Source: Azolla caroliniana (taxonomy: Eukaryota > Plantae > Polypodiophyta). Taken from it: a DNA stretch of 64,000 bases. Below, in pieces: positions 16,053 to 41,399 of the stretch. The position numbers were made by a program, and so were the translations under genes. The stretch spans positions 20,708,001 to 20,772,000 of the forward strand of contig JBHGNT010000003.1 of assembly GCA_043228905.1 (NCBI GenBank), written 5' to 3'. How positions within the stretch are numbered: position 1 is the stretch's first letter; each line of letters begins with the position of its first letter. The notes below the pieces were generated by a model. The model had not been told where the DNA came from and made no database searches. It was given only the letters and a program-made list of their open reading frames with translations.

Positions 16053-19000
16053 TTTTTTTGAAAAGGGATAGGCCTTGGTATTATAAAATCACAAGAAATA
16101 CAAAAGTTGTGTTGGATAAAGGAGTATGCCAACCGACTCCATTGTGCTCACATCATAGCTGATTTGTTGTGTCTATACAAGAACTACACATATTTGTACA
16201 CCATATCTCCAAGATTTTTATGTCTACTCTTGCCAAACTACAACTGAGCGTGCAATGTAACCTATACCACATAATTTGTAGCAAGAGAGTGTCCATAAAC
16301 AAAGTTAGTAGACATTGTTTCCCAAAATGATGGGAACATTATACATCCATATCATGTGATCTCCATCTTCCCTAAAAATGACCATTGAATCCCACAACCT
16401 TTTAAAGTGCATTTGCTTCATGAAAATGGCATCAACATTGCCTGTAAAACTTTCATACTGACCACATAATGTATGAATAAGTAACAACAAGAATTCAACA
16501 ATTATAATAGAAACATCCTGAGTGGTGTTGTCAAATACTGATGTACGCACGCCTTCCAAATTACCCACATCAGAATAGATGAAATTGTCTTCCAAATAAT
16601 ATCATCCCTAAATTGCAAACTATCACTTATAAAAGGTTGAGCCATTTGTATATGAGGAGGAACTATGTGAAAGGCTTCCACTATATCTCCTCCTTTTCAT
16701 ATAACAACAATTGTCCCTCTAGAATGCCCCACCTAACCACACCCCAAGTAATAACACAATTAGCATGTATCAATATCAACAACCTTAATTCTCTCTGCCA
16801 AACTTGCACAATTTTAGGACAAGACCACAATACATGCTTAATTGATTCCATCATACATCCACAACCAAATCCACACGACGTACTATTTAGTTGTCGTAAC
16901 CAAGCCTGAACCGGTAGTGTATAATGGATCAATAACCAACAAAAAAGGACAATCTTCTTAGGATTCTGCATACTCCATAACCACTTCCAATATTTAGATG
17001 CATCCATTAAAGAGGCCCCATTCGCCAACCACACTTTCATAGCAGATGGAAGATGCAATTTCCTACTTAAGAGCAACTTTCGTCCCAACTTCACAAAAGA
17101 TTGAAAAAATTGAAAAATTTTAGTATGAGACGAAGGATTTGTATGTTTCCAAAGATAATCTGATGAATCCCAATGCAAGTCCAACAACGATTTAAAAAAA
17201 AAAAACCATAGTTGGCAAAATAAGATACTATCATAAGGAGAAGGATCTAAAATCCACTTTTTATCAAATTTACCAATCACTCTCACTAGATGTTGCAATG
17301 TTGTTTGCCAAATTGACGATTCCACATCAGTTTGCCATAATCTTCCTTCCTCAGATACATCAAAATAGTAACGTTCTCCTTGAGACATTCCTTTTGCTCC
17401 TATCATAACACCAACCGGAGCAAAATATCTAAACCAAACATGCACAGAAGAAGGTGACCAATTAGAACGAAAATTCCCTAAAGATAATTGAATTGCATCA
17501 AACATAGGTCTAAAACCCCTACACATGGTAGCATCTAGCTGTGAATTATTAAGATGACAAACATAATTTCCCCAAGAGGCTATCATGGCAACTATACCAT
17601 TATCCAAGTCAACCCACTATAATCACGGTCTACTTCCAAGCAATACACCCCTCTCATTAGAAAAAATAAAATTCCAAATCAAAGGTTGTTGCAATAGTTC
17701 TTCATTCAAAGATGGGCATCTACAAATAAAACAAAACTTAACAACATCCGATGCTTTACAAATGTCAACCATAAAACCATCTATCGGAACATGTATCTGT
17801 CTTGTTTTAAAAATTGACAACAATGCCCATCTTAGAGATGGTTTTCAAAAGCCCCCCGTAGACGGTTTAATATCAACCAATCTGTTTAAAAGAAACTCTG
17901 ACCATATACCTTGAGTTGGCAAGATAGCCCTAACAATTTTTTTTGCCAAAAGAGCCTTACATTGGATGTCTGGGTCTATCGTACGTAAAATTCGTGTTCG
18001 TTTGGCATAATATTCGTTTTCCTACATTGGAAAACGAATGTGAATGTTATTCAAACATTCTTGTGTTTTTTTTTTGTTTTTTTCCCATTTATTTATTTTT
18101 TTCCATTTTTACCTCATAACAAATAGTTAATCCAAAAGTATGGTAATTATCATTCTTTGAGTGTGTTTTTCTTAGGTGAATGATTGAACCATTCACGAAT
18201 GCGAATGCACGTATGGTTCATACTATGTCTGGGTCTACCAACCCTAGACCACCATAAGAAATTTGCGTCGTAAGTGTTGACTAAGCTACCTTCGCACAAG
18301 CATCACTATTACTTCTTCCTATCCAAATAAAGTTTTGAACCAGTCATTGAATTTGCAACAAACAGGATCTAGAGAACAAACATGTAGGTGCAATATACCA
18401 CATAGATGAAAGGAGAACTTGATTAGCTATCATTACTCTGCTTGCTAAAGACAACTCCGTAGTGTCCTAAATCAACAATTTTTTGCTTAGTAATAACATT
18501 AATGGAGCTAACAATCACTCCTTATGCATATTTATACCAACTTGATAGCCCAAGTAATGAACTAAAACTCCTTCTTGAATCCAATGAAAAGACTCGGATG
18601 GTATCCATGATAGCAATGGCCACGTAGAAACCCAAAAACCCACTGATTTACACCAATTAAGTCCCAATTAACTTTTGCACTAGAGGCAACGCAAAATGTT
18701 TCCAATGCAACCAGTGTTTTACAGAAATTACCTTCTTCAGTGTGCATGTATGGTGCAGTATCATCTGCAAACTCCACATCTAAAATCATATTGTTAGAGA
18801 TCGGTGTGACTAGCCCTTGGATCCCAACACCTGCTGAATTAAAATATGCGGAGAATACCTCCGTAACAATAAGAAATAAAAAAGGGGCTAACATACACCC
18901 TTGGCGAACTACTCGTGACATTTGAAATGTTCGTCCTCTACCTCCTACTACTAAGATAGAACTATAAGTTAATTTGTACAAAGCTGCCACTGCAATAATC

Positions 19001-20830
19001 CAAGCTTTTGGAAACCCTAATCTTCTCATTGCCTCTTCTACAAAAGTTCCAATTCACTCTATCATAGGCCATTTCAAAATCTAACAATAAAATTACTAAG
19101 TCCTCTTTCTTGGCCATACCCGAGGAGGATAACTCCCAAAACAAAGCAAAAATATCATAGATACTCCTATCTTGCATGCAACCTGTTTGAGAAGTATGAA
19201 TAATATCAGGCAATAAAGGTTGCAAACGCAACACCAATACCTTAGCATAAAATTTGTAAATTGTATTGAGTAATGTGATTGGCCACCATGCCCTAATGTC
19301 CTCTGAAGCTCCATCACCTTTAGGGATAAAACAAATCAACCCCTCCTTCCATTCCTCTAGCATAGCTCCAAAATAAAATTTTATTTGAAAAGCACTAGTT
19401 AAATCATCAGCTATAATGTCCCAATATTGTAAGAAAACGTCCCTTATTAGTCCATCCTCTCCTGGGTAGACCTCGGAACCCAAAGATTTTAATGCTTGTT
19501 GAACCTTAGAAGAAGAAAAATGGCATAAAAGAGTTTGAACCATTTGATATGTAACACATGGCTTTGTTGCACCAAAAACTATACCCCTCATTGCCAATAC
19601 ATTTTGACTCACCTCATTAGCAGACAACAATTGTTCATAATACCGAGATGTTAACTCTCGCATTTCATCCGGATCCATTGAGAGAGTACCGTCATCCCTC
19701 TTTAATGCACCCATCTGAAACTTACGCGGTCTTGGAGTAACTACATCAAAAAATAATTTGGACATTTTGTCCCCTTTTTGAGACCATTTTGTTGCAAATG
19801 CAAAGTATTTAAAATAAGCAATTTTAGATTGCATAAGAAAAATTGCATCTCTTAACTTCCGTAAGTTGTTTTCAAGATAAATTGAGTTGATATCTCTTTC
19901 TTGCAAGCATTGAATCGAGGCCAACCCTCTTCTTGTATTTGCCAACCGAGAGACAAGAAAATGTTTCTTATCTTTAGCCTGACCTAAAAGTAGTTGCTTA
20001 AGTTGAAATAAAGCCACAAAAACCTTAGATAACTTATCAGGAGCAAAGACACTAGACCAAAGGGAAGCAACACTCTCCATAATGGAATCATCCTTTTGAA
20101 TCCATTTTGGAATCTTTACATGATCATGAAATACAACAAATCGCAATTTCAAAGTCAGTGTGATCTGAAAAGTTTGTACCCAGCACTATCCCTAGAGATC
20201 CACGTAAATCCCAAAATTATTGATTCGCGTGAAACTTGTCAATCCTAGAGATATTGGCATTTGCTACCCGCCTGTTCGACTGAGAAAATTGTAATGACTC
20301 TACCCTTCTTGCAAAATACTGCATAAACCATAAGTCCTACAAGCTAACTTTAAAGCATAAATTTTCCCACTCAGCCAATTCAACATCTGAGATTGTAATT
20401 GTGCCCCCACCCATACAATTAGAAGGGTCTTCAAGCATATTAAAGTCCCCAACAATGCACCAATGATCAATTACAGGGAGATCAGTCCACAATTAGCACC
20501 AAAATTGTGCCCTTCCCCTTGCTGAATTCGGTGCATAAACATTCAAGAAACCAACTTTTTTCTCTAATAGATTTAATACTATAAATTGGGCACAACCGCC
20601 CTGTAAAAAACCCTTGTCTACAATCAAAGAAGCCCATTTTTCAGAACATGCAATAGCAAGCCCCCCTTGCATTCTAGATGGCCCATAAGCCGAAATCCAA
20701 TCATAAAACCACCATCCCTTCTCTAGAGTCAACTTGATTGTGTGCATACCCAAAACAATTGCTTGGTGAACCAAAAAGTGTACAAGTCCAATCACTACGA
20801 CTAATGATTGTTATTGATAATGTCCAACCA
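16053..20830 (-). mobile_element. Decayed, 5'-truncated L1-clade LINE (ORF2: APE endonuclease, RT, zf-RVT)
   Basis: NVYAPN (20493-20795); WPITLLNTIYK and LLLDFEMAYDRVNW (18962-20152); RQGCMLAPFLF and EFADDT (18562-19029); CGFGCGC..ESIKHVLWSCP (16681-17607); short poly(A) at ~16053-16059. Several frameshifts/stops; no TSD found. Confidence 0.9.
17979..18224. mobile_element. 246-bp insertion in the LINE with 13-bp flanking direct repeat
   Basis: ATGTCTGGGTCTA at 17966-17978 and 18225-18237; removal restores GGLGLVDPDIQCKALLAK; degenerate terminal inverted repeats and an internal 11-bp hairpin. Confidence 0.8.
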
Positions 20831-21027: not shown

Positions 21028-21482
21028 TGTTACAGGCATGACCATATAATATCCCGTGGTGAGAATTTACCGTAATATTCTATACACGTGGATAAGTGCG
21101 AGGGTTAAACGAGAGTGTAAAGAAGGGGAGGATTACTTTTAATCCTCGGGATTGAGACAACCCATTAGCCCAAGTGAGAACTTGTCTGGGGGCCTTGGGT
21201 ATCACTATAAATAAGAGGCCTAGCTACCCTCATTTCATCATCTGGTTGACTACGTCGAGACTCTGTCTTGTGGTGGGTCAACTCTTGTAGCGAGTGCGCC
21301 AGCACCAGGTACGACTCGACGCCACGATGGTGGTATGAGACGCCGATCGAGGCTCGAGTCCGTCTCGATCCCTTCGCTCGGGGGTGGTCGGGTGGATCAA
21401 CACCCTTCTTTCTCTCTCTCCTTTCTATCTAGATCTATCTTTTATTCTTATTTTATGCTTACATTAGTTCATGTCTCTAATA
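21028..21482 (+). repeat. Chromovirus 5' LTR
   Basis: Starts TGTTAC, ends CTAATA; TATAAATA near 21207; matches 40911-41365. Confidence 0.95.
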
Positions 21483-21827
21483 GTTGGTATTAGAGCCTAT
21501 GTTCTAATGTTTCTTTTGTTTTCTTTTCTTTTGTTGATTGATGGTGATCGATCAATGTGCAGTCGGCCTTGATCCAGACAACAATCAACAAAGGAACTTC
21601 GGTAACTCTTTCCTTCTTCTTCTTTTCTATTTTTTCTTCTCCCATCTAATCATGTGTATAGTCTATATGTAATTGTTTTCATTAATTTAATGATGTTGTA
21701 GTGGTAATTAATTGGTTGTATAAAACGTTTACATATATGTATGAGGTCAATACCTCATTTGACATATATTGAATATGTGATTAGTGTCATATGCGCACAA
21801 GGTTAATACCTCAATTGCGTATTACGC

Positions 21828-22477
21828 TGTCGAGGTATTCCTCGCGGATGCGTGGAATGAGGCGGGACCTCGGGGGTCTTGTACCGAAGAGCAAGAGAGA
21901 AAGGAGAAGGGAAGGGACCCACTACGTGCGAGCGTAGATCCACAGGGACACGGCCCTTCGATACGAAGACGCGAGCGGGGAAACCAACACAGAGAGGCAC
22001 GAAGGTATGTATGTATATATATTAACAGAGACAAACAACAAGAAGCGCGAAGTCGGTTACAACCGAACAGGCCGGCGAACAGATGCCGATGCCTGTTCGC
22101 AAACGCTCAGAAAGAAAAGGGGTAGGTTGGAGGTGCTGCCGGAAGCACTCGGGCATTCCTCAGAGCAACGCGAGCCTCCCGAAAACCTGCACAGAAAGAA
22201 GCTACGGAGTCTTGGAAGAGAGCGAAGCCTTCGGCCGAAAACCCAACAACACTTCGTCCTCTCTATCGTCGATCCCCTTCCTCCTTCTCGTCTCCCTCCT
22301 TTTATAGGCAAGAAAGGAGCCGTTTCCCATTAACTTCCTGCCTACCGAATCTACCTACCTAGGATCTTCTATGTACCTAATTCTCTCTTACGTACAACAT
22401 AAGGCGTACATGCATGAAGAGCCGGTTCCTACGCTACGGTGCACCGATTCCGCTTGTGGACGGTTTTCTTCACGACA
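21828..22477 (-). repeat. 3' LTR of inner Gypsy
   Basis: TGTCG...TTCACGACA on +; adjacent minus-strand PPT GGTTAGGTGGGGGCGGA. Confidence 0.95.
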
Positions 22478-22550
22478 TCCGCCCCCACCTAACCGCGCAT
22501 CCACCGGCATGCACCAAATTGAGTTGGGACGGAGAAAACCGGTCCAACCT

Positions 22551-25500
22551 TCATTCCCCGCCCGTCGGTTCTTCCTCGGTTTCAGATCGTTCGTCGTCGC
22601 GGTCCAGGTTAACCGGATCCGGCTCGTCGTCGTGACGCTTCTTGAACGCTTTGATCCGCTTCCCAGCTACCGGTATCGCCATTCTCGTGCCGTCGAGTTC
22701 CGCCAGATGGTACGTCCCATTGTCGTTGGCGCTTTGGACCACGTAAGGCCCGAACCACCTTCTTGCAAACTTCCGTGTCGCTCGGTGCTGGTTGTCGAGG
22801 CTGCTGTCGTAGACTAGCACCCAGTCGCCTTCCTCGATCTTCTTTGGTCGGAGCCGGTGCGTCCGGTCGAACTGGGCTTTGTTCCTCGTCCTTGCCGCAC
22901 GAAGCTTTCCCGCAGCCTGCTCCACGTCTTCCGGTCTTCTCTCGAGCTGTCGTATGCGCGCCGCCAACAGTTCCTCCCGGCTCATCTCGTTTTTCCAGTC
23001 CATGGTTGCCCATGAGGAGATTGTACGTTCCATCGGCATGATCGGCTTCTACCCAAACATGAGCTTTGCCGGCATGAATCCGGTTACCGAACTGTGCGTG
23101 GTTCGGTCCGCCCACAACGCGTAAGGCAACAGCCGCGGCCAGTTCCCGACTTGACCTCCGCATGCCTGAACTAACGCCTTGACGATCGGTCCGTGTCTGC
23201 GCTCCACCTTCCCATTCGCCTCCGGATTGTACGCAGTGGTAAGCGAGAGCTTGACTCCTAGCCGGTCGAACAACTCCTCAGCCTCTTCGGCGTCCAACTC
23301 CTCGCGGTCAGCCACGATCTTCCCGACGCACCCGTACTGGCATATCACGTCCTCGATCAGGAACCGACATACGGCCGCGGTCGTTTTGTTCTGAAGGGCT
23401 CGGCCTTCCACCTGGTTCGTCAGATCTTCCCGAGCCAGGACCAGATACCGCATCTGTCCTACTCCCATCGGCATCGTCACCAGGTCTACCATCCATTTGA
23501 AGTGGATGGTCGGAGGGTACGTAGGGTGAAGCTCGTCCCAATGTCGGACTATGGAGTGCATCTGACCGCTCTCACAAGTTGTCACGAACCGATGCACGTC
23601 CCGGTACAGTCCCAGCCACCAGTACTTCCCCTTTATCTTCTCGAACGTGGCCCACTTCCCACGGTGTCCAACCCAAGGGCTGTCGTGGTAGGCCGTCAAC
23701 AGCTCCTCCTGTTCTTCCTTCATCGTCACCACCCGGAGCGGGACGTCGTTCCTCTTCTTCGGGTGCTTCCATAAGTATCCGTCCCGGAGAAAGAATCAGT
23801 ATGCTTTCTTCCGGATCCGGTTGGCCTCGTCCCTCGTCCATGACGCATCCGGCGTCATTGTCCTCAAAAACCCACCGATCTGTAGCCACTCGCCGTCGTA
23901 CTTGCTCTCGTCGAAGCTGTTAAGTGCCGGAGTGCTCGTCCCATCGGTTGTCACGTACGCCGCCTCGAAGAAGTCCACGCCGACTTCTTCGTCCTCCAAA
24001 ACCATGCCGCCCTCGTCATCAAACCTCGCCCTCGAAAGCATGTCGGCCATGGCGTTGTCCTTTCCGAAAATGTGTCGTATTTCCGGGTCCAGGGACTTGA
24101 TGTACGCTATCCACCTGAGCATCGCCAGGTCCGGTGTCGCGCATCCGGAAACCATGCCGAGAATGGGCAGGCAATCCGTCTCGATAATCACTTCTGTCCC
24201 GATCAGGTAGTCTTTGTCGACCTTTACTGCCGAAACGATACCCCAGAGTTCGCGTTTAACCTGGGCGTACCCTCGCTGTCGCTCACTGAGGACCTTCCCG
24301 CCGAATCCGATCGGGAACCGAATGCCGTCCTCGTCTTCTTGGTTGACGACCCATCCGATCCCGGTCGGACTCGTATCCACCGTTATGTAAACCGGGGTAC
24401 CCTTCTCGTAGACAGCCTTCCGGAGCGCCGGTGCTGCCGCAAGAGCTTCCTTCAGCTTCCGGACCGACTCCGTGTGCTCGTCTCGCCACCCGAATTTTCG
24501 CCCCTTCTTCAGCAACCCGTATAGCGGTTCCGCAACGTGGGTGTAATGCGGGATCCATATGTGGTAGAATGCGCATGCCCCTAGGAACCTCCGAACTTCC
24601 GTAACCGAGCTACAGTTGGTCTTCATCGCGGAGATGGCTTCTACCTTTGCCGGAGACGGCTTCCAGCCATATGGTCCACATAGGTGTCCGACCACCAGGA
24701 TTTCTGATTGCCCGAAGGCCGATTTCTCCCCGGAGAAGGTGAGCCTCGCATCCTCTAGCCTTTGTAGCACCTTCTCGCAGTCGTCGATGTGTGTTGCCAC
24801 GAATCGCCGGCATCCGTCCGGCCCGAGTGTCGCGTCCTTCTCTTCCACCGGGCACCCCTTGATCGGGATGTCATCTAGAAATGGCATGGTGATGTCCGGG
24901 ATGCAGTCCCTCAGTACCTTGTTCATTGCATTCACCATGTGGGCCACCGAGTTGGTCCCTCCTTGCGGCAGGGTACACATTCGCACTAGGCCGAGGGGAG
25001 TTCGCATCGTCGTAATGTCTCTACTCTCCACGGCTAGCTGGAACTGGTCGTACCCCGAGTACAGATCACCGACCGAGTAAATCGACCTTCCGGCAAAGGC
25101 CTCCGCGAACTCGTCTATGGTCGGTCCGATTCCTGCGTTCCGAATGGTCACTCTGTTGACCGGCTGCAGGTCTTGAATGAAGCGCAATGTTCCGTTTTTC
25201 TTTGGTACGGTAAACCATCAGTTCGAGTATGGGGCACTCGACGGTTCGAGAATGCCCATATCGACTTTTTGCCTCAATAGCTCCATCAACTTCGAGATGT
25301 GAGCTCTCGGTACTAGAATCGGCTTGAGATTCCACGACACATGCAGTACCGTGAATATCACCATCGGCTCCACGATTGTCGGGTCTACGCACATGATCTC
25401 TTCCGGTGAGAATGCGAAGGCTTTCCCGTGCCTTCCGAGCATTCTCCGAAACCGGTCTTCCTCCGCCGGCAGTAAGAACCCGCCCCCACCGATTTTGAGC

Positions 25501-26054
25501 TCCCAGAGCGTCTCGTCGGTGAAGGTGTGTCCTATGCAGACCGGATCTCGTAAGCTGGGGTCCGACGCAACCCCTCTGATTCGGGACTCGCTGCCCTCCG
25601 GTAAGTGTGCCGCGACTGGCCTTACCTTCCGGTCCACAGTCTTGTACTTCGTGCTAACTCAGGCCGTCCGACCCGACCGGAGCCCCTGACTGAAGTTCGC
25701 GATGACTTCGTACATCTCTTCGGAACATACCGGTATCGTCCGGTCTTCATTACGGTTTTCTCCGGCTACCTTCCTCAGCATCCCCAAGGTGTCGTCGAAG
25801 GAGACCGCCTCCACAGCTCCGCTGATTTCCTCGTCCGGGCCGAGAACTCCGCACGCTCGAAGTCGTACTTCCGCCCTTGCTTTTTCTCGGCCAACGATGC
25901 CGACTATCATACACCCTCCGTTGTCGGAGAAGCAAAAATTTCCACCTACCGTACAGGGTTTCTTCGGTTTCGGTTCTATCGTACAGTTGTGGGGTCTTTC
26001 CTGAGTGTTCGAACTGTCTCGGCCCCACGCCTTGGCAGCCCTCTCTAAAAATCC
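22551..26054 (-). pseudogene. pol (RT-RNaseH-integrase) of inner Gypsy, one frame with four premature stops
   Basis: ORFs 25659-25910, 25218-25637, 23796-25187, 23049-23732, 22551-23039 are all in one frame, separated by TGA/TAG explainable as C>T changes; integrase YNPEANGKVER and WFGPY. Confidence 0.92.
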
Positions 26055-27573
26055 TCCCGGTTCTCGCCACCGAGGGATTCGCGGTTTCGCTCGTGGTTCA
26101 GTCGCACCGTCAGAAATTGGACCGAATGGCGCCCGTCCTGGCTTTTGACCCTCGCGTAGGCCGAACCGTTGTCCAGCACCTTGGTCTCCATTCGCGCCGC
26201 CGTGATGTATGGTTCCCCTAATATGACCGGGTGCGAGGACGTCTCCTGTACGAAGAAGTGCTGGTCAATCTCGACGTCGCCGATCTTGACTCGCACGTTC
26301 GGGCAGGCCCCATGCAGTTCCTCGGTGGCGCGCGTCGCCGCCCGTATCTTCCACCCGTGCTTGGTGTTGATCGGCCACTTTCCCTTCTTATAGAAGTCCA
26401 TGGACATCAGGTTTATTTCCGAACCGTGGTCCACCAGTGCCACCACCGGTTCCTGAACATCTCCGATCTTTACCGGGGTCTCCGTGGTCGCTCGGGCCCA
26501 GTGCGGCCTTGAATAGTGGCTCTCCGCCCACTCATCTTCCAGCGCCATGTCGTCGATGTGCGTCGTCCGCACCTCCACCGGTCTTTCCGGTTCCGTCTCC
26601 GTCGACAGCCTCTTCTGTTTCACCAGGTCCACAATGGAGTCGTGGAACTCCTTCTGGGCGATCCCTAGCACCTCCCGCAACGACAGCTCCACTTTGCTGT
26701 CGAGGATCCGTTCTTCTAGGACCTTTCGTAGGTCTGTGGTCCTTTCTATTTTTGTCCCCAGTCGGTATCCACCCTTCCTGGGGTTATCTTGCGCGCTGGA
26801 CCCACCGGCTTCGTTCCGTCGTTGCCCGAATCGGGTCTCGTATCGCTGTGAGGGCTCGGCCGCTCCGGCTTTCCCCACTCGTTTGTCTTCTACCAGAGCC
26901 TCATAGTTCCGGCAGGCGGCTTCTACGAAGCCCGTCTTCTCCTTGACCGGGTCGCTCCACCCGGTTATTTCCCGGACCCGTCTCTCAGCGCGGTTCACTT
27001 CATCTTTCCTCAGTCGTGCGCCGGCGAGGCCTTCCAGCATTGCCGACCAGGATCCGGCTTTGCTCTCCTTTCGGGCCTCGCTGCCCCCGACCCGAATACC
27101 AGCCGATGCCGAGTAGTGGACGGTCTCCACGTGTTGGGCCGCTGCCTCTTCCATCAGTCTCTTCATACCTCCTTGCTCGTCGTTTCGGTTTAGGGCCCTT
27201 CTGGTGTCACTGGCGTGCACCCGGCCTTCCCACAGGTACACCACCCGGTTCCTCAATGCCTCTTCGAAATTGCCGTAGTCCTTTCGAATGTGGCCGACCT
27301 CGTCGCACCACATGCACCTGTTACCTGCTGCCGGCCGTCGGTCACGAGCCGGTTCGCCGCCTTCCCTTCGAGTCTGGGCGATCTGGAGATCCTTTATCGC
27401 CCGCGTCAACTCCTCCAGCGCTGGTCCTCCGGACGAGTCATTGACCATGCCGGTCGAAGCCGAACCGGTTTCGAGCCACTCCCGGGTCTCTACCCTTCGC
27501 CCTTGCGGTGCCGGTTCAAGCCTCCTTGCAGTGACAGAGCCCGCACCGGCCGCTCCATTGTCAGCCCATTCTC

Positions 27574-30500
27574 TGTTGGGATTACGGTCCCTCCGGATGG
27601 GATGGTCAGATGTCCGGGAATTGGGAATGAAGACCCGAATGAGTAGTACCCGGTATCAGAGCCGGATGATGAAGACCCGGTTTCGGATCCGGATGATGAA
27701 GACCCCGACTACGGAGCCGGATGACGAATGTACCCGGAGAGAGATCCGGATGCGGGGACATATTTGTGAATATGTTTGCCAAGGGCCCTCTAGGCTATAC
27801 TTGTAAATAGCCCGAAAGTCATATGTGTATAAATATGACTTAGGGCAAACAGTTTTGTTGTTGTTGCTCATTTTTCTGTTTTCCACTTAGAGGGAGCGAA
27901 GTGAGAGCAGCCGAGAGAGAGAGTGAGAGAGAGAGAGAAAGGAAGAGGTCGACGCCTCTGTGTAATACCGCCGCCTGTGGCGAGGACAGCGAGCTCAAGG
28001 TCGTCGCCTTGCAGCTCGCCATTGTACATTCACTGCGTATAGTGATAGTTGGAGTCTTGCACTCCCGTGGTTTTTCCCGTCTAGGGTTTTCCACGCTAAA
28101 CCCTGTGCATTCGAGTCTCTCTCTGTGTTTTCGATTTACTACTGCATTGATTCGCGTTTCCTCGGTTGTGGCCGAGAGGTGAAAGTTTTTTTGAAAGCGT
28201 AAATCTCTAACAATCTGGTATCAGAGCGACTGCAGTGCAGAAAATGGAAGGCGGCAGCAGCGGGCAGCCGGGGATGATAGTGCTGAATGCGCAGAACTAC
28301 GCCGACTGGAAGATAAAGATGGAGGATTTGCTCATTGTTCGGGACCTGTATGAACCGATCGACAGGTCGGAAATACCCAAGGGGGTACTTGAGACGGAAT
28401 GGAGGCTTCTGAACCGGAAAGCCGTTGCAACCATTCGGCAATACGTCGACGTGAGCGTTCTACAACATGTGGCGAACGACACCAACGCATATGAGATGTG
28501 GCAGAAGCTGTCGGGCCTCTACGAGAGGAAGAATGCGTTGAACAGGACCTCCCTGATGAGGAAGATAGTGAACCTCAAGTACCGGGACGGCGAGAGTATG
28601 GTGGAACACGTAAGCACGTTCATGGGATTCGTGAACCAGCTTGCGGCGATCAAGTTCCCGTTGGAGGATGCAATGCAAGCCATCATCCTGATGTGTACAT
28701 TGCCGGCAAGTTGGGAGAACTTGGTGGTGACTCTCAGCACCTCCTGCACCGAAGATAACTTGTCCCTACAAACGGTAAAGACAAGCATTTTGAACGAAGA
28801 AGCGCGTCGGAGAGATAAAGAACCGGCCTCCGATCCGAAGATGCTGCTTGCCGAATCGGATCGGGGAAGACAACGGAACCGGAGTCCGCAAAGACGGGAG
28901 AAGTCGGGGACCCGGTCGCAGTCAAGAGGAAGGCCCACATGCTTCCACTGTGGGAAGCCGGGGCACTTCCGAAAGAATTGTCGGCATTACCGAAAAGACA
29001 ACGGAGCCGACGACACCGATTCGAAGAAGTCTTCGGAACGGAACGGAGCTTACCGGGGAGCCACGGACCGGAATGGTTCGGATCGGCGAGGGCAGGACCG
29101 GAAAGGAACGACGGCACTCGCGGCAAGTGAAGAGGAGATCATGCTCATCACCGAAGAAGGTGAACTAAACATTGCCGGCGATGAGACTACCTGGGTGGTT
29201 GATTCCGGAGCGTCGTTCCACCTGACCCCGGAAAGAAGATACTTCTCATCCTACACAGCCGGTGAGCATGGCTGTGTTCGGATGGGAAATGAAGGTATGT
29301 GCCGGATTGCCGGCATAGGAGACGTGTGGTTGACAACCTCGACCGGATGCAAAATGTTGCTGAAGGATGTCTGACACGTTCCGGAGGTTCGATTGAACCT
29401 GATTTCGGCCGGGAGGCTAGATGATGAAGGCTACACAGGTAGCATCCGGAACTGCGTAATGAAGTTCAGCAAGGGGAGCCTGATAGTGGCTCGGGCCCGG
29501 AAAGTCAACACACTGTACCTTATGAATGCCTGGTTGTGTCCGGAGGAGTTGAACGTGGCAGCCGACACTGCCGGTGAGCTGTGGCACAAGAGACTGTGCC
29601 ACATGAGTGAGAAGGGGATGAAGAGGCTTGCAGAAGACAACCTTATTCCAGTGAAGCATGTGCACCTGGAGAAGTGCACCGATTGCCTGGCCGGTAAGCA
29701 GAACCGAACCTCCTTCCACTCAAGGCCACCGACGAGACGTAGCGCACCATTGGAGTTGGTGCACACTGACGTGTGTCAAGTAGAAACGAAGTCACGTGGC
29801 GGAGCCCAGTACTTCGTGACATTCATTGATGACCACAGCCGGAAGCTGTGGACGGCACCACTGAAGACAAAGGACCAAGTGTTGTACGTCTTCAAAGAAC
29901 TCCACGCGAGAGTGGAAAGGGAATCCGGCAAGAAGTTGAAAGCGATACGAGCGGATAACGGAGGGGAATACCGGGGGCAGTTCGAGGAGTACTGTCGCTC
30001 GAAGGGAATCCGGCTCGAGTTTACTGTGCCGAAGACGCCGGAACTAAACGGACTGGCCGAGAGGATGAACCGGACCATAATGGAGAGGGTCCGGAGTATG
30101 CTGGCGCATGCGAAATTACCCAAGGGGTTTTGGGCTGAGGCAATGTCGACGGCGACATACGTGATAAACAGATCACCCTCAGTACCTTTGGACGGAGACA
30201 CGCCGCAGAGACTGTGGACCGGTAGGGAAGTATCCTACCGGCATCTGAAGGTGTTCGGGTGTCTCGCATATGTGCATGTGGCAAAGGACCGGAGAGGAAA
30301 GCTAGATCCAAAGACCCGGCCATGCATATTCCTCGGTTACGGCGATGACGAGTTCGGCTACCGAGTATGGGACCCGGTCGACAAAAAGATATTCCGGAGT
30401 CGTGATATCATCTTCATGGAGGACAAGACACTCGCCGACTGGGAGTCGGAGAAGAAGATAAAGAGCTCCAAGTCGACCGGTGAGGATCAACTCTACGAGG

Positions 30501-32966
30501 AGCAGTCCCGACCGGCAAGGGACCGGTTAGCACTCGAGGATCCGGCCGAAGACGGTGAAGAAACAGAACCGGCCGAGGAAGATGAAACTGATACCGGAAC
30601 CGGCCCCGATCCCGAAATGGATTCGGATGAAGAGGAAACGGAGGAGCCGGTTACCGAAGCTCCGGAACAGAGATATCCTCTAAGAGAGAGAAGGCCCCCC
30701 CGGAGATTTCCGGAACCAGAGCACGTGCTGCTAACCGACGAGGGGGAGCCGGAGAGTTTTGAAGAAGCAAAGCTTGACACCCATAGCCACAGGTGGTTAA
30801 GTGCCATGCAGGAGGAGATGGATTCCCTGCATGAGAACCACACATATGAACTTGTGGAGTTGCCGAAAGGAAAGCGGGCACTTCGAAACAAGTGGGTGTT
30901 CAAGCTGAAACCGGGAGATGCCGGAAACCCCCCGAGATACAAAGCCAGGATCGTGGTGAAGGGGTTCCAGCAGAAGAAGGGCGTTGACTTCGACGAGATA
31001 TTTGCCCCGGTAGTGAAGATGACCTCCATCCGGACGGTGCTGAGCATAGCGGCAAGCATGGACCTCGAGGTAGAACAGATGGACGTGAAGACGACATTCC
31101 TTCACGGTGACCTCGAAGAAGAGATCTACATGCAGCAACCGGAAGGATTCGAGAAGAAAGGGAAGGAGCACCTGGTATGCCGGTTGAAGAAGAGCCTTTA
31201 CGGATTGAAGCAGGCTCCCCGGCAATGGTACCGGAAGTTCGACTCTTTCATGACCAACGAAGGGTACCACAAAACGCAGTCCGATCACTGCGTGTTTGTG
31301 AAGAAGTTCGAAGGAGGAGACTTTCTAATACTCCTCCTGTACATGGACGACATGTTGATCGTCGGACGGGACCAGGTCAAGATACGGATGCTGAAGAAAG
31401 CGCTTCACCGAACCTTCTCAATGAAGGACCTGGGTCCGGCGAGGCAAATACTAGGGATGCACATCATCCGGGACCAGAAGAAGAAGCAGTTGTGGCTGTC
31501 ACAGGAGAAGTACGTGACAAAGGTGCTTCACCGGTTCAACATGTCGGAAGCAAGACCGGTCGGGTCAACCCTCCCGGCAAACTGCAAACTGTCCAGCAAG
31601 CAAAGCCCCAAGACAAAGGCTGAGAAGGAGGACATGATGAAAGTACCATATGCCTCTGCCATCGGAAGCTTGATGTACGCAATGGTGTGTACAAGACCGG
31701 ACATAGGATATGCAGTCGGAGTGGTGAGCCGGTACATGAGCAATCCCGGCAAAGAGCACTGGAACGCGGCCAAGTGGATACTCCGATACTTGAAGGGCAC
31801 GGCAAACGTGTGCCTCCGATTCGGCTCCGGTAAGCCCGAACTCGACGACTTTACCGATTCGGATATGTCGGCTGACGCAGATACCAGCCGGTCCACATCA
31901 GGGTATGTGATGACGTATGCAGGGGGAGCTGTTTCGTGGCAGTCGAGGCTGCAGAAGACGGTTGCGTTGTCAACCACGGAGGCGGAGTACATGGCGGCTG
32001 TTGAAGCCGGCAAGGAAATAATATGGATGAAGGACTTCATTAGAGAGCTCGGTATCCGGCAGGAGGAGTACCGACTCTACTGCGACAGTCAGAGTGCCAT
32101 CCACCTTGCGAAGAATGCGGCCTATCACTCCCGGACGAAGCACATCCAGAGAAGATATCACTGGATCCGGGAAAGGATAGAAGACCAGGAGTTCGTGCTG
32201 ACGAAGATCCACACGGACGAGAACGGGTCAGATATGCTGACCAAAGTGCTCACACCCGACAAGCTGGAAGCGTGCCGGAAGAGGGTCGGACTGGAAAGAC
32301 ATCCCATGCCGAAGTGAAGGGGGAGCTTGTTGGGATTACGGTCCCTCCGGATGGGATGGTCAGATGTCCGGGAATCGGGAATGAAGACCCGAATGAGGAG
32401 TACCCGGTATCAGAGCCGGATGATGAAGACCCGGTTTCGGATCCGGATGATGAAGACCCCGGCTACGGAGCCGGATGACGAATGTACCCGGAGAGAGATC
32501 CGGATGCGGGGACATATTTGTGAATATGTTTGCCAAGGGCCCTCTAGGCTATACTTGTAAATAGCCCGAAAGTCATATGTGTATAAATATGACTTAGGGC
32601 AAACAGTTTTGTTGTTGTTGCTCATTTTTCTGTTTTCCACTTAGAGGGAGCGAAGTGAGAGCAGCCGAGAGAGAGAGTGAGAGAGAGAGAGAAAGGAAGA
32701 GGTCGACGCCTCTGTGTAATACCGCCGCCTGTGGCGAGGACAGCGAGCTCAAGGTCGTCGCCTTGCAGCTCGCCATTGTACATTCACTGCGTATAGTGAT
32801 AGTTGGAGTCTTGCACTCCCGTGGTTTTTCCCGTCTAGGGTTTTCCACGCTAAACCCTGTGCATTCGAGTCTCTCTCTGTGTTTTCGATTTACTACTGCA
32901 TTGATTCGCGTTTCCTCGGTTGTGGCCGAGAGGTGAAAGTTTTTTTGAAAGCGTAAATCTCTAACA
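27574..32966 (+). mobile_element. Young Ty1/Copia retrotransposon (Tto1/Tnt1-like) nested in inner Gypsy gag
   Basis: 639-bp LTRs 27574-28212 and 32328-32966 (3 mismatches seen), TG...CA ends; TSD TTCTC at 27569-27573 and 32967-32971; PBS TGGTATCAGAGC 28216-28227; PPT GAAGGGGGAG before 3' LTR. Confidence 0.97.
28244..32317 (+). pseudogene. Copia gag-pol with a single in-frame nonsense codon
   Basis: CFHCGKPGHFRKNC, WVVDSGAS, WHKRLCH..CTDC, integrase core, RT LKKSLYGLKQAPRQW / YMDDML, RNase H. TGA at 29372-29374 replaces the conserved Arg of KDVRHVP; both ORFs share a frame. Confidence 0.95.
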
Positions 32967-33591
32967 TTCTCGCCGTTTGTCGAAACGGCCACAGACTCTC
33001 TTAACCGCAACCCAGTCGGTCGTCAGTCCGTCTTCGGTTTCCAGCAAGGAGCCGACTTGATCCCGGTCCCGCTCGTCCACCGACTTGACGAACAGTAGGA
33101 CCCGGCTCGTATCCAGAACGGTTCGGTCAAGCGCCGAAAGGCGCGCAAAGCGTTCCTCAAACTCCCGGAGGAGTGCCGACGCGTTTCTTCCCTTGCCGGG
33201 GGACTCCACCCATCCCATGAAGTCCCGTTTCGAAAGCCGGAGCGCGTCGTCCAGCCCGTATTTTTCTAGGAGTCGGCCTTCGAACTCCTCCCAGGTACGG
33301 CTCTCCTCCCGTACCTCGAGCACCTCCACATGGATGCTCGGCATCGCCACTCGAGGGAACCCGACAAGACGCCTCTCTTCCGGAATGTCCCGCATCAGCA
33401 TTTCTGCCCCGTAGGACGCCAAATACTTCGTAGCATCCTTTCCGCTGAACCGGCCGATCGTACCGACGACCACCTCAATGGCTCTGTCGAGGGCGCCGGT
33501 GCCCTCGCGTGCGCTCAATATCTGATCCACGGCCGAAGCCATGGCCTCCGCCAGATCCGACCCCTTCATCTTCTGCTCTTCTGCCGCCTCC

Positions 33592-33609
33592 TTCACGTCG
33601 GGTTCACCA
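33592..33609 (-). other. Primer-binding site complementary to tRNA-Trp
   Basis: + strand TTCACGTCGGGTTCACCA equals the 3' 18 nt of plant cytosolic tRNA-Trp(CCA) as I recall it; 3 nt from the 5' LTR. Confidence 0.88.
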
Positions 33610-33612
33610 AGA

Positions 33613-34262
33613 TGTCGAGGTACTCCTCGCGGATGTGTGGAATGAGGCGGGACCTCGGGGGTCTTGTACCGAAGAGCAAGAGAGAAAGGAGAAGGGAAGG
33701 GACCCACTACGTGCGAGCGTAGATCCACAGGGACACGGCCCTTCGATACGAAGACGCGAGCGGGGAAACCAACACAGAGAGGCACGAAGGTATGTATGTA
33801 TATATATTAACAGAGACAAACAACAAGAAGCGCGAAGTCGGTTACAACCGAACAGGCCGGCGAACAGATGCCGATGCCTGTTCGCAAACGCTCAGAAAGA
33901 AAAGGGGTAGGTTGGAGGTGCTGCCGGAAGCACTCGGGCATTCCTCAGAGCAGCGCGAGCCTCCCGAAAACCTGCACAGAAAGAAGCTACGGAGTCTTGG
34001 AAGAGAGCGAAGCCTTCGGCCGAAAACCCGACAACACTTCGTCCTCTCTATCGTTGATCCCCTTCCTCCTTCTCGTCTCCCTCCTTTTATAGGCAAGAAA
34101 GGAGTCGTTTCCCATTAACTTCCTGCCTACCGAATCTACCTACGTAGGATCTTCTATGTACCTAATTCTCTCTTACGTACAACATAAGGCGTACGTGCAT
34201 GAAGAGCCGGTTCCTACGCTCCGGTGCACCGATTCCGCTTGTGGACGGTTTTCTTCACGACA
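33613..34262 (-). repeat. 5' LTR of inner Gypsy
   Basis: Matches 21828-22477. Confidence 0.95.
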
Positions 34263-35587
34263 ACGCTCACATACATATGTTACGTATGCGTATGAGGTGA
34301 ATACCTCGATTTCGTTGTAAATGATGTGTTTGGTCTCGTATGCGTAAGAGGTCAATACCTCAATTGCATATTACGATGAACCCTTATTTTTGGATGTTTC
34401 GTTTGCGTTCAGTTATATACCTCGATTACGTATCTCGATTATATCATTTATGGCTATTTGATGTAACGATTTGTTTAATATACGCATATGTGGTCACGTG
34501 TATACGTATTTGATCGTATATATGTGATAATATACATATGTGTATATAAGTTATTACATGATTTTAATATGGAATGTTTTCCTTTTCGGGGAAAGGATCT
34601 TGGTGGCCGCCCTCACATTTTTGTGAGAATGGCATTTTCACCATCCCTTTTGCAACAAGTTTTTGTTGACATCCCCGTTGGTCACTTTGATATTTCGTTA
34701 CGTAATGAAACAATCATAGCCACAATAGTGTTGAGTACGTAGGGCTTGACCCACTTCATGTGAGGTCGCTCCTATGACACACATATCCAACATCCCTCCC
34801 TCATTACATGGATACGATGCCACCATGAGATCATAAGAGGCATTCGCAATGACGTAACCATGTGATGGGCCACGTGGGCCTACTACAAAAAGAGGGCTCA
34901 TTTGGCTTGACCATTAGGTTGCACTTTGGCGTATGCCATCGTAATTACGAGACTTGAGGTTAGGTAACGTACCAACATATTTTGTAGTAAACGAGGGGGA
35001 AATAAGGATTCTTGACATATATGTTTCTTTTAAAAAAACATATATGGGCAAATGCCTTGCATATCTCTTATACGCATGAAACATTAACCATTCAAGAAGA
35101 GCAACCTACTTGGTTGGCTCCATTGTTTAATGCATTTGTTCTCGAGGTCTCGAGTTCAAATATAATCAAGACCATACAACATCATTGATACATTTGACTA
35201 TAACACATGTTTAGACTTGAGGTCTAAGTGCACTTCGGGTTCTCGTAATAAGACTTAAAGAGCCGAAACCACATATGTGGGCACAGAAACATAATTTATT
35301 GTTAACATTTTTTTCGTGTATAAACCACTCATGACGCGAACATACATGGTTGAGCCTTGGGAAGCTATCATGAAAAAATCAATATAGAGATCAGGGAGAG
35401 ACATTAATTTGTCACCCCCATGGTTTTTAAAACACCTTTGTGTTACCAGAGTAACTTGATCTTGAACCTCATCTCATATGTCTAGAGGGGTATTGATGTG
35501 AGATCATGATAACGATTAATGTTTGCCCATGATATGTTTACATCATGACATGATGTTATGACTATTTGTCTGACCTTATCCTATTTC

Positions 35588-40910: not shown

Positions 40911-41365
40911 TGTTACTGGCATGACCATATAATATCCTATGGTGAGAATTTACCGTAGTATTCTATACACGTGGATAAGTGTGAGGGTTAAACGAGAGTG
41001 TAAAGACGGGGAGGATTACTTTTAATCCTCAGGATTGAGACAACCCATTAGCCCAAGTGTGAACTTGCCTGAGGGCCTTGGGTATCGCTATAAATAAGAG
41101 GCCTAACTACCCTCATTTCATCATCTGGTTGACTACGTCGAGACTCTATCTTGTGGTGGGTCAACTCTTGTAGCGAGTGCGCCAACACCATGTATGACTC
41201 GACGCCACGACGGTGGTATGGGACGCCGATCGAGGCTCGAGTCCGTCTCGATCCCTTTGCTCGGGGGTGGTCGGGTGGATCGACACCCTTCTTTCTCTCT
41301 CTCCTTTCTATCTAGATCTATCTTTTATCCTTATTTTATGCTTACATTAGTTCATGTCTCTAATA
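40911..41365 (+). repeat. Chromovirus 3' LTR
   Basis: Matches 21028-21482; followed by TSD GACCT. Confidence 0.95.
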
Positions 41366-41399
41366 GACCTCATAGATTTTTTCATGTGCGCAAGCCCTT

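Follow-up and report, generated by a model that had tools for sequence, protein, structure and literature searches.

A Phygy-like family of Ty3/gypsy retrotransposons in the genome of Azolla caroliniana has Gag-protease in one reading frame and RT-RNase H-integrase in a second frame that overlaps it. Comparison of its members makes programmed -1 frameshifting on the heptamer G_GAU_UUU the probable route of access to pol (probability about 0.9), with a pseudoknot 6 nt downstream as the likely stimulator. Judged by conservation, the two-frame layout is a design of the family and not a product of decay. That the heptamer and pseudoknot after the protease form a real signal, and a new form of a known mechanism, is well supported. 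In the proposed mechanism, most ribosomes would terminate at the gag-pro stop, giving Gag-Pro; a minority would stall at the pseudoknot, where the Asp and Phe tRNAs would slip back one base in tandem on the heptamer, giving a Gag-Pro-Pol fusion. The outcome would be a protease equimolar with Gag, and scarce RT and integrase.

The window, i.e. the whole stretch of 64,000 nt that was analysed, contains a copy of this family with the following features:

21828..34262, minus strand: Phygy-like LTR retrotransposon of the Ty3/gypsy type (about 7.0 kb once the nested copia element is subtracted)
33613..34262, minus strand: 5' LTR (from the LTR pair match)
33594..33609, minus strand: primer-binding site TGGTGAACCCGACGTG (read from the sequence)
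32972..33806, minus strand: gag-pro ORF, 5' part (within ORF 32961-33806)
27574..32966, plus strand: nested Ty1/copia element interrupting gag (5-bp target site duplication TTCTC at 27569-27573 and 32967-32971)
26045..27573, minus strand: gag-pro, 3' part (DUF4100 and a protease of retropepsin fold; C-terminus ...EDF, then TAG)
26048..26054, minus strand: slippery heptamer G_GAU_UUU (58/59 own-genome copies)
26045..26047, minus strand: stop codon UAG of gag-pro, which makes up the first three bases of the 6-nt spacer (26047-26042)
26034..26041, minus strand: pseudoknot stem 1, 5' strand GGGCUGCC (from comparison of relatives, as for the next three)
26023..26028, minus strand: pseudoknot stem 2, 5' strand GUGGGG
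26011..26018, minus strand: pseudoknot stem 1, 3' strand GACAGUUC
25989..25994, minus strand: pseudoknot stem 2, 3' strand CCCCAC
22551..26047, minus strand: pol frame (-1), with a linker of about 127 codons, then RT, RNase H and integrase
21828..22477, minus strand: 3' LTR, with a purine-rich tract ahead of it (about 22478-22494)

The LTR pair of the gypsy element spans 650 nt with 9 differences and has TG..CA termini, and the element is flanked by the 4-bp target site duplication (TSD) ACGC (21824-21827 and 34263-34266), which has the NCGN form. Its primer-binding site (PBS) is presumably of the tRNA-Trp type. A Pfam scan of all pol pieces found RVT_1, RT_RNaseH, Integrase_H2C2 and rve in gypsy order, and no chromodomain or aRH; the 5' part of gag-pro (32972..33806) had no match in the Pfam scan. 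The preliminary description had placed all pol fragments in a single frame, -1 relative to gag-pro, and they do lie there, in four pieces (ends 25659, 25218, 23796/23049 and 22551). With four stops in pol (25659, 25218, 23796 and 23049) and the copia insertion in gag, the window's own copy is dead. In the nested copia element the LTRs match over 643 nt, with 4 differences, and the Pfam domains are Retrotran_gag_2, rve and RVT_2; it is young, and one in-frame stop (29372-29374) separates its two ORF pieces. On either side of the gypsy element, 19.9 kb apart, lies a direct repeat of 456 nt (21028-21483 and 40911-41366, 95% identical), which may be the LTR pair of an older element or else two solo copies. 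ORFs at 18562-20185 (minus strand) have, by eye, the look of a decayed LINE reverse transcriptase.

The usual active-site motif of such proteases is D-T/S-G. The element has D-H-G instead (26431-26423, minus strand, with the Asp at 26431-26429), and this form is invariant in 28/28 aligned proteins. Pfam aspartyl-protease hits were weak (9 of the 28 alignment members) and a PDB sequence search with the protease alignment gave no match; in a fold search the predicted model of the protease matched Ddi1 RVP and retroviral proteases, with a best E of 1.9e-06.

At the junction, GAG GAT TTT TAG had been read at 26056-26045, with the heptamer GGATTTT at 26054-26048, the spacer at 26047-26042, and pairing of GGGCTG (26041-26036) with CAGTTC (26016-26011) and of GTGGGG (26028-26023) with CCCCAC (25994-25989); all of these coordinates are correct. 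Stem 1 had been drawn with two G-U pairs, and the pairing is present, but one of the two is nearly private to the window copy. Among 59 own-genome copies, the 3' strand of stem 1 is GACAGTTC in 2, GACAGTCC in 31 and GACAGCCC in 14. The stem has 8-9 bp in relatives, with a C.A mismatch at pair 7 in the window's subfamily.

A search pattern combining heptamer, stop position, spacer and stem start had 3620 matches in the own genome and 2 in a reversed control. GGATTTT is kept in 58 of 59 distinct own-genome copies and TAG in all 59, and the offset is -1 in 27/27 measurable cases among 30 close copies. A metagenome set comprised 80 loci (76 from one accession series, whose contigs may be collapsed repeat families); 26 were dropped as having no protease motif, stop, heptamer or downstream pol, leaving 54 readable on both sides. 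The offset is -1 in 52 of these 54 and +1/-2 in the other two; pol is in frame with gag-pro in none, and stop readthrough was rejected on this count. Intact relatives with protease and RT in one frame, the case named in advance as speaking against recoding, are thus absent from all 54. GGATTTY occurs in 50/54 loci, and every one of the 52 with the -1 offset has G_GAU_UUU/C or G_GGU_UUU, correctly framed, where the ORFs overlap; the gag-pro stop codon is TAA in 26, TAG in 19 and TGA in 9 of the 54. Decay as the cause of the offset is ruled out by the family-wide conservation of offset, heptamer and stop.

Both G_GAU_UUU and G_GGU_UUU, which alternate among the metagenome relatives, are of a non-canonical type and have been tested in PEMV; the available text of that study gives G_GAU_UUU as a -1 shift site on wheat-germ ribosomes, interchangeable with G_GGU_UUU and aided by a nearby stop (PMC4737148). 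The preliminary description had recognized GGAUUUU as a plant-virus slippery site, which agrees with the PEMV tests and with the G_GA type given for dianthoviruses in the accessible part of a review (PMC5009743). A third signal type is found in three metagenome loci (L130, L131 and L136), in which the stop sits five codons beyond the heptamer, where the 5' strand of stem 1 ends; the heptamer is G_GAU_UUU or G_GGU_UUU and stem 1 still starts 6 nt downstream. The distance between heptamer and stem 1 is thus held more strictly than the stop position. The pattern of this third type had no match in the own genome. A search of a viral contig collection yielded 59 pattern matches and no confirmed relatives.

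Downstream of the heptamer, an H-type pseudoknot with two covarying stems (S1 and S2) is predicted. The window copy folded alone is no better than its shuffles (z 0.61, -0.01, -0.50 and 0.10 over four spans), so the pseudoknot rests on comparison, not on energy; the predicted fold contains S1 or S2 according to the span, the program being unable to fold pseudoknots. RNAalifold recovers S1 unprompted, with 8 pairs, 6 of which show compensatory changes. When both stems are specified, 83.8% of cells are paired (fixed columns; S1 91.9%, S2 71.7%), the lower value for S2 arising because its 3' strand changes register. Changes on both sides are seen in 7/9 pairs of S1, and S2 shows compensatory variants among relatives. 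Covariation of the whole structure is 0.363, compared with 0.231 in shuffled alignments (0/500 reach the observed value) and at most 0.179 in slid controls. An alignment-free scan, scored by a simple scheme of our own making, found a two-stem pseudoknot with both stems possible 4-7 nt past the heptamer in 30/30 sequences; the lowest score, 28, is reached by 6.1% of 1110 control positions and the median by 0.09%. On a tree of 24 tips (5 of 29 representatives, with pol too short, were left out), about 8 double changes fall on single branches in S1. Changes per column on this tree number 0.6 in the heptamer, 2.4-2.8 in the stems and 6.2-8.7 in spacer and loops, i.e. the stems change about one third as often as spacer and loops.

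The earlier -1 reading stands for the main family, but it overlooked a sister clade whose pol lies in the +1/-2 frame. The two metagenome loci with this offset (L113 and L121) have the site AG_GUU_UUU, a 5-nt spacer and the same two stems, and their gag-pro ends in QVFD or QVFY, where relatives end in QDF. They form one clade with support of 100/100, in a tree without a firm root or a firm placement of the clade. Pol dN/dS between the two is 0.08 at a dS of 1.18, which suggests that Pol has long been made in the +1/-2 frame. Sister-clade sites number 98 in the own genome and 0 in the control, and 13 of 15 own-genome loci examined have the +1/-2 offset, the other 2 carrying private downstream indels. 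The clade includes very young copies: among 20 longer stretches, LTR pairs with an identity of 99.1% or more occur in 8 (some 99.5-100%), and in 2 both frames are open throughout (738 and 1152 codons).

This clade probably reaches pol by -2 frameshifting on AG_GUU_UUU. The heptamer would have become AG_GUU_UUU with the loss of one spacer base and retention of the pseudoknot, and in a -2 slip the A-site Phe would re-pair fully on this site. In HIV cassettes, according to the available text, -2 shifting was best at spacers 1-2 nt shorter than for -1 (PMC3458567), and PRRSV is described as shifting -2 on GG_GUU_UUU, with an immediate -1-frame stop (available part of PMC4937337). The -2 reading is weakened because P-site re-pairing on AGG would be poor; for comparison, a first-base change in the HIV U6A context abolished -2 shifting (PMC3458567, available text), a point that also favours a +1 shift on GUU_UUU_N or at the stop. 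Such a +1 shift leads to the identical frame, and known access to the +1 frame is mostly by +1 shifts, as far as the accessible part of the review goes (PMC5009743); in L121 a U6 run permits +1 re-pairing. We nevertheless consider it doubtful, since the commoner form GUU_UUU_GAC would re-pair poorly at +1 and fully in the A site at -2. The A-to-U change (giving five U's) and the one-base-shorter spacer to an intact 3' pseudoknot are what the available HIV account (PMC3458567) predicts for -2. In addition, the PRRSV -2 site GG_GUU_UUU ends in the same seven bases (PMC4937337, available part), and the -1 frame closes at once in the sister clade, as in PRRSV. With -2 frameshifting, the clade would represent a natural switch from -1 to -2 within one family, in a clade still spreading, with a pseudoknot-driven -2 shift making essential RT and integrase, and we hold this to be reasonably likely.

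For the family as a whole, 29/29 divergent representatives, whose protease DNA is 58-90% identical, show no stop in the pol-frame linker (27/27 among those with the -1 offset), although its length varies between 347 and about 460 nt. Counted from the shift site, the open frame of relatives runs to about 1150 codons. In L081 and L122 the nearest upstream pol-frame stop lies just 13 nt before the heptamer end, which would confine the shift to the last codons. From codon 21 onward the dN/dS of the linker is 0.18-0.55 (10/11 pairs computable), and in 10/10 computable pairs the first 20 linker codons have a lower dS than the remainder; for pol, dN/dS is 0.05-0.17 (8/11 pairs computable). The alignment of family copies proposed in the preliminary description thus finds offset and heptamer conserved and the stems covarying across own-genome copies and metagenome relatives. 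Together with the conserved stop position and the open linker under purifying selection, this favours its claim of programmed recoding over decay.

Plant Ogre elements are split at the same place and, according to the available part of PMC6317226, have been shown to splice, and Physcomitrium and Riccia gene models join both ORFs. By analogy, removal of the gag-pro stop within an intron could join protease to RT in some transcripts. This is very improbable here, for the linker is open in 29/29 representatives and shows purifying selection from codon 21, so that an intron could occupy no more than about 60 nt, and these 60 nt are the covarying pseudoknot, with GT at the start of stem 1 in just 3/30 sequences. 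In Ogre it is a stop-bearing non-coding spacer that is removed as an intron; the linker here is open and selected. RNA reads of one relative speak in the same direction, at low depth: neither a joint nor an indel was present in 315 poly(A) reads across the region from three runs (depth at the site about 7-11 reads per run; relative mostly 85-95% alike; both strands covered). On the +1/-2 clade, the reads numbered 0, 4 and 2.

As to the gene models, named homologues come from Physcomitrium, Riccia and Adiantum, with high identity to Physcomitrium proteins. Among 120 listed of 253 homologues, the C-terminus is DF in 53, NF/GF in 2, (D/G)FxxxP(L/F) in 34 and VF(D/Y) in 2, i.e. 91/120 fit the junction endings and 29/120 have other C-termini. 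The (D/G)FxxxP(L/F) ending, that of the third signal type, is present in Physcomitrium and Adiantum proteins. There are also 21 database proteins of at least 939 aa (P0121-P0141), many of which join protease to RT; all 21 are gene models of Physcomitrium or Riccia in which the junction is, by eye, absent or replaced. The fusion of gag-pro to pol past the frameshift stretch in these models is probably an annotation artefact.

Separate synthesis of Pol from a linker AUG, by reinitiation, internal initiation or a subgenomic RNA, is likewise very improbable. A Met does stand about 20 codons ahead of the KYK motif in most representatives, but it is missing in L115 and L135, and the linker has no fixed AUG, the first Met lying anywhere from codon 1 to 109. 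Coding constraint and the open frame reach about 100 codons further upstream, to the heptamer, and separate initiation leaves the heptamer and its fixed spacing unexplained. That the offset arose by mutation in a non-autonomous lineage copied by trans-supplied Pol, as the broken window copy with its four pol stops and copia insertion might suggest, is hardly credible, as the offset is common to lineages with protease DNA just 58-90% identical and the pol dN/dS of 0.05-0.17 (8/11 pairs) includes the value of 0.08 at dS 1.18 inside the +1/-2 clade. Programmed -1 frameshifting is therefore the reading that we adopt for the main family.

Animal and fungal LTR elements are known to use -1 frameshifting. 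For plant LTR elements, the accessible part of a review gives only +1 offsets as of 2003 (PMC5009743). No earlier description of the junction signal was found in the literature searched, in which subscription journals are little covered, nor in the available portions of PMC7466625 and PMC12786077, and among the lineages of the REXdb table none is given with a GAG-PROT frame that overlaps the RT frame (PMC6317226). If our reading is true, seed-free plants possess a widespread pseudoknot-driven -1 frameshift positioned after the protease, which would also explain why gene predictors span these elements with apparent introns. About three features distinguish the -1 from the +1/-2 cassette, and this natural pair lends itself to testing, on plant ribosomes, the mRNA-tension model for the direction of the shift.

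In alpharetroviruses (RSV/ALV), the protease is made with Gag, and RT and integrase are made via a -1 shift. The heptamer and the stimulator there differ from those described here, and the element is an animal retrovirus, not a plant Ty3/gypsy element. The Dictyostelium element Skipper reportedly also has a frame change between pro and pol. An alpharetrovirus-like split had been named in the preliminary description, a comparison that is apt but incomplete, since plant Ogre and Retand elements are also split after the protease (PMC6317226, available part). In these elements of the Tat group the ORFs are parted by a spliced intron (Ogre) or a single in-frame stop (Retand), as given in the same source; here the frames overlap, with a heptamer and a predicted pseudoknot. 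More generally, the overlapping frames listed in REXdb are all those of GAG with PROT (Tcn1, Selgy and SIRE), and its splits after PROT are only via a spacer or stop (PMC6317226).

The family resembles Phygy in its 4-bp NCGN TSD, its PBS taken to be of the Trp type, its length of 7-8 kb, the absence of a chromodomain hit and its Physcomitrium homologues. REXdb gives for Phygy a 4-bp NCGN TSD, a Trp PBS in 81% and an ORF organisation "not determined" (PMC6317226); the elements described here, assigned by that description, have a GAG-PROT frame that overlaps the one for RT-RH-INT.

The closest counterparts of the signal are found in umbra-, diantho- and luteoviruses, which have the same two heptamers (PEMV2 G_GAU_UUU, BYDV G_GGU_UUU) and a spacer of 5-6 nt. 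As here, they have a stop at or near the site and use plant ribosomes (PMC4737148, available text). Their stimulator is described as a long bulged hairpin with long-range 3' pairing, whereas here a compact local H-type pseudoknot is predicted. For the sister clade the comparison is with the -2/-1 frameshift of PRRSV nsp2 (GG_GUU_UUU), which in the available account shares an immediate -1-frame stop with the commoner form of AG_GUU_UUU. In PRRSV an RNA structure is absent, and the shift requires nsp1beta/PCBP to be bound 11 nt downstream (PMC4937337, available part); the sister clade has a predicted pseudoknot 5 nt downstream, and its shift would be essential for RT. If true, the -1 to -2 switch would parallel in nature, without a viral trans-activator, the spacer-length rule established in engineered HIV cassettes.
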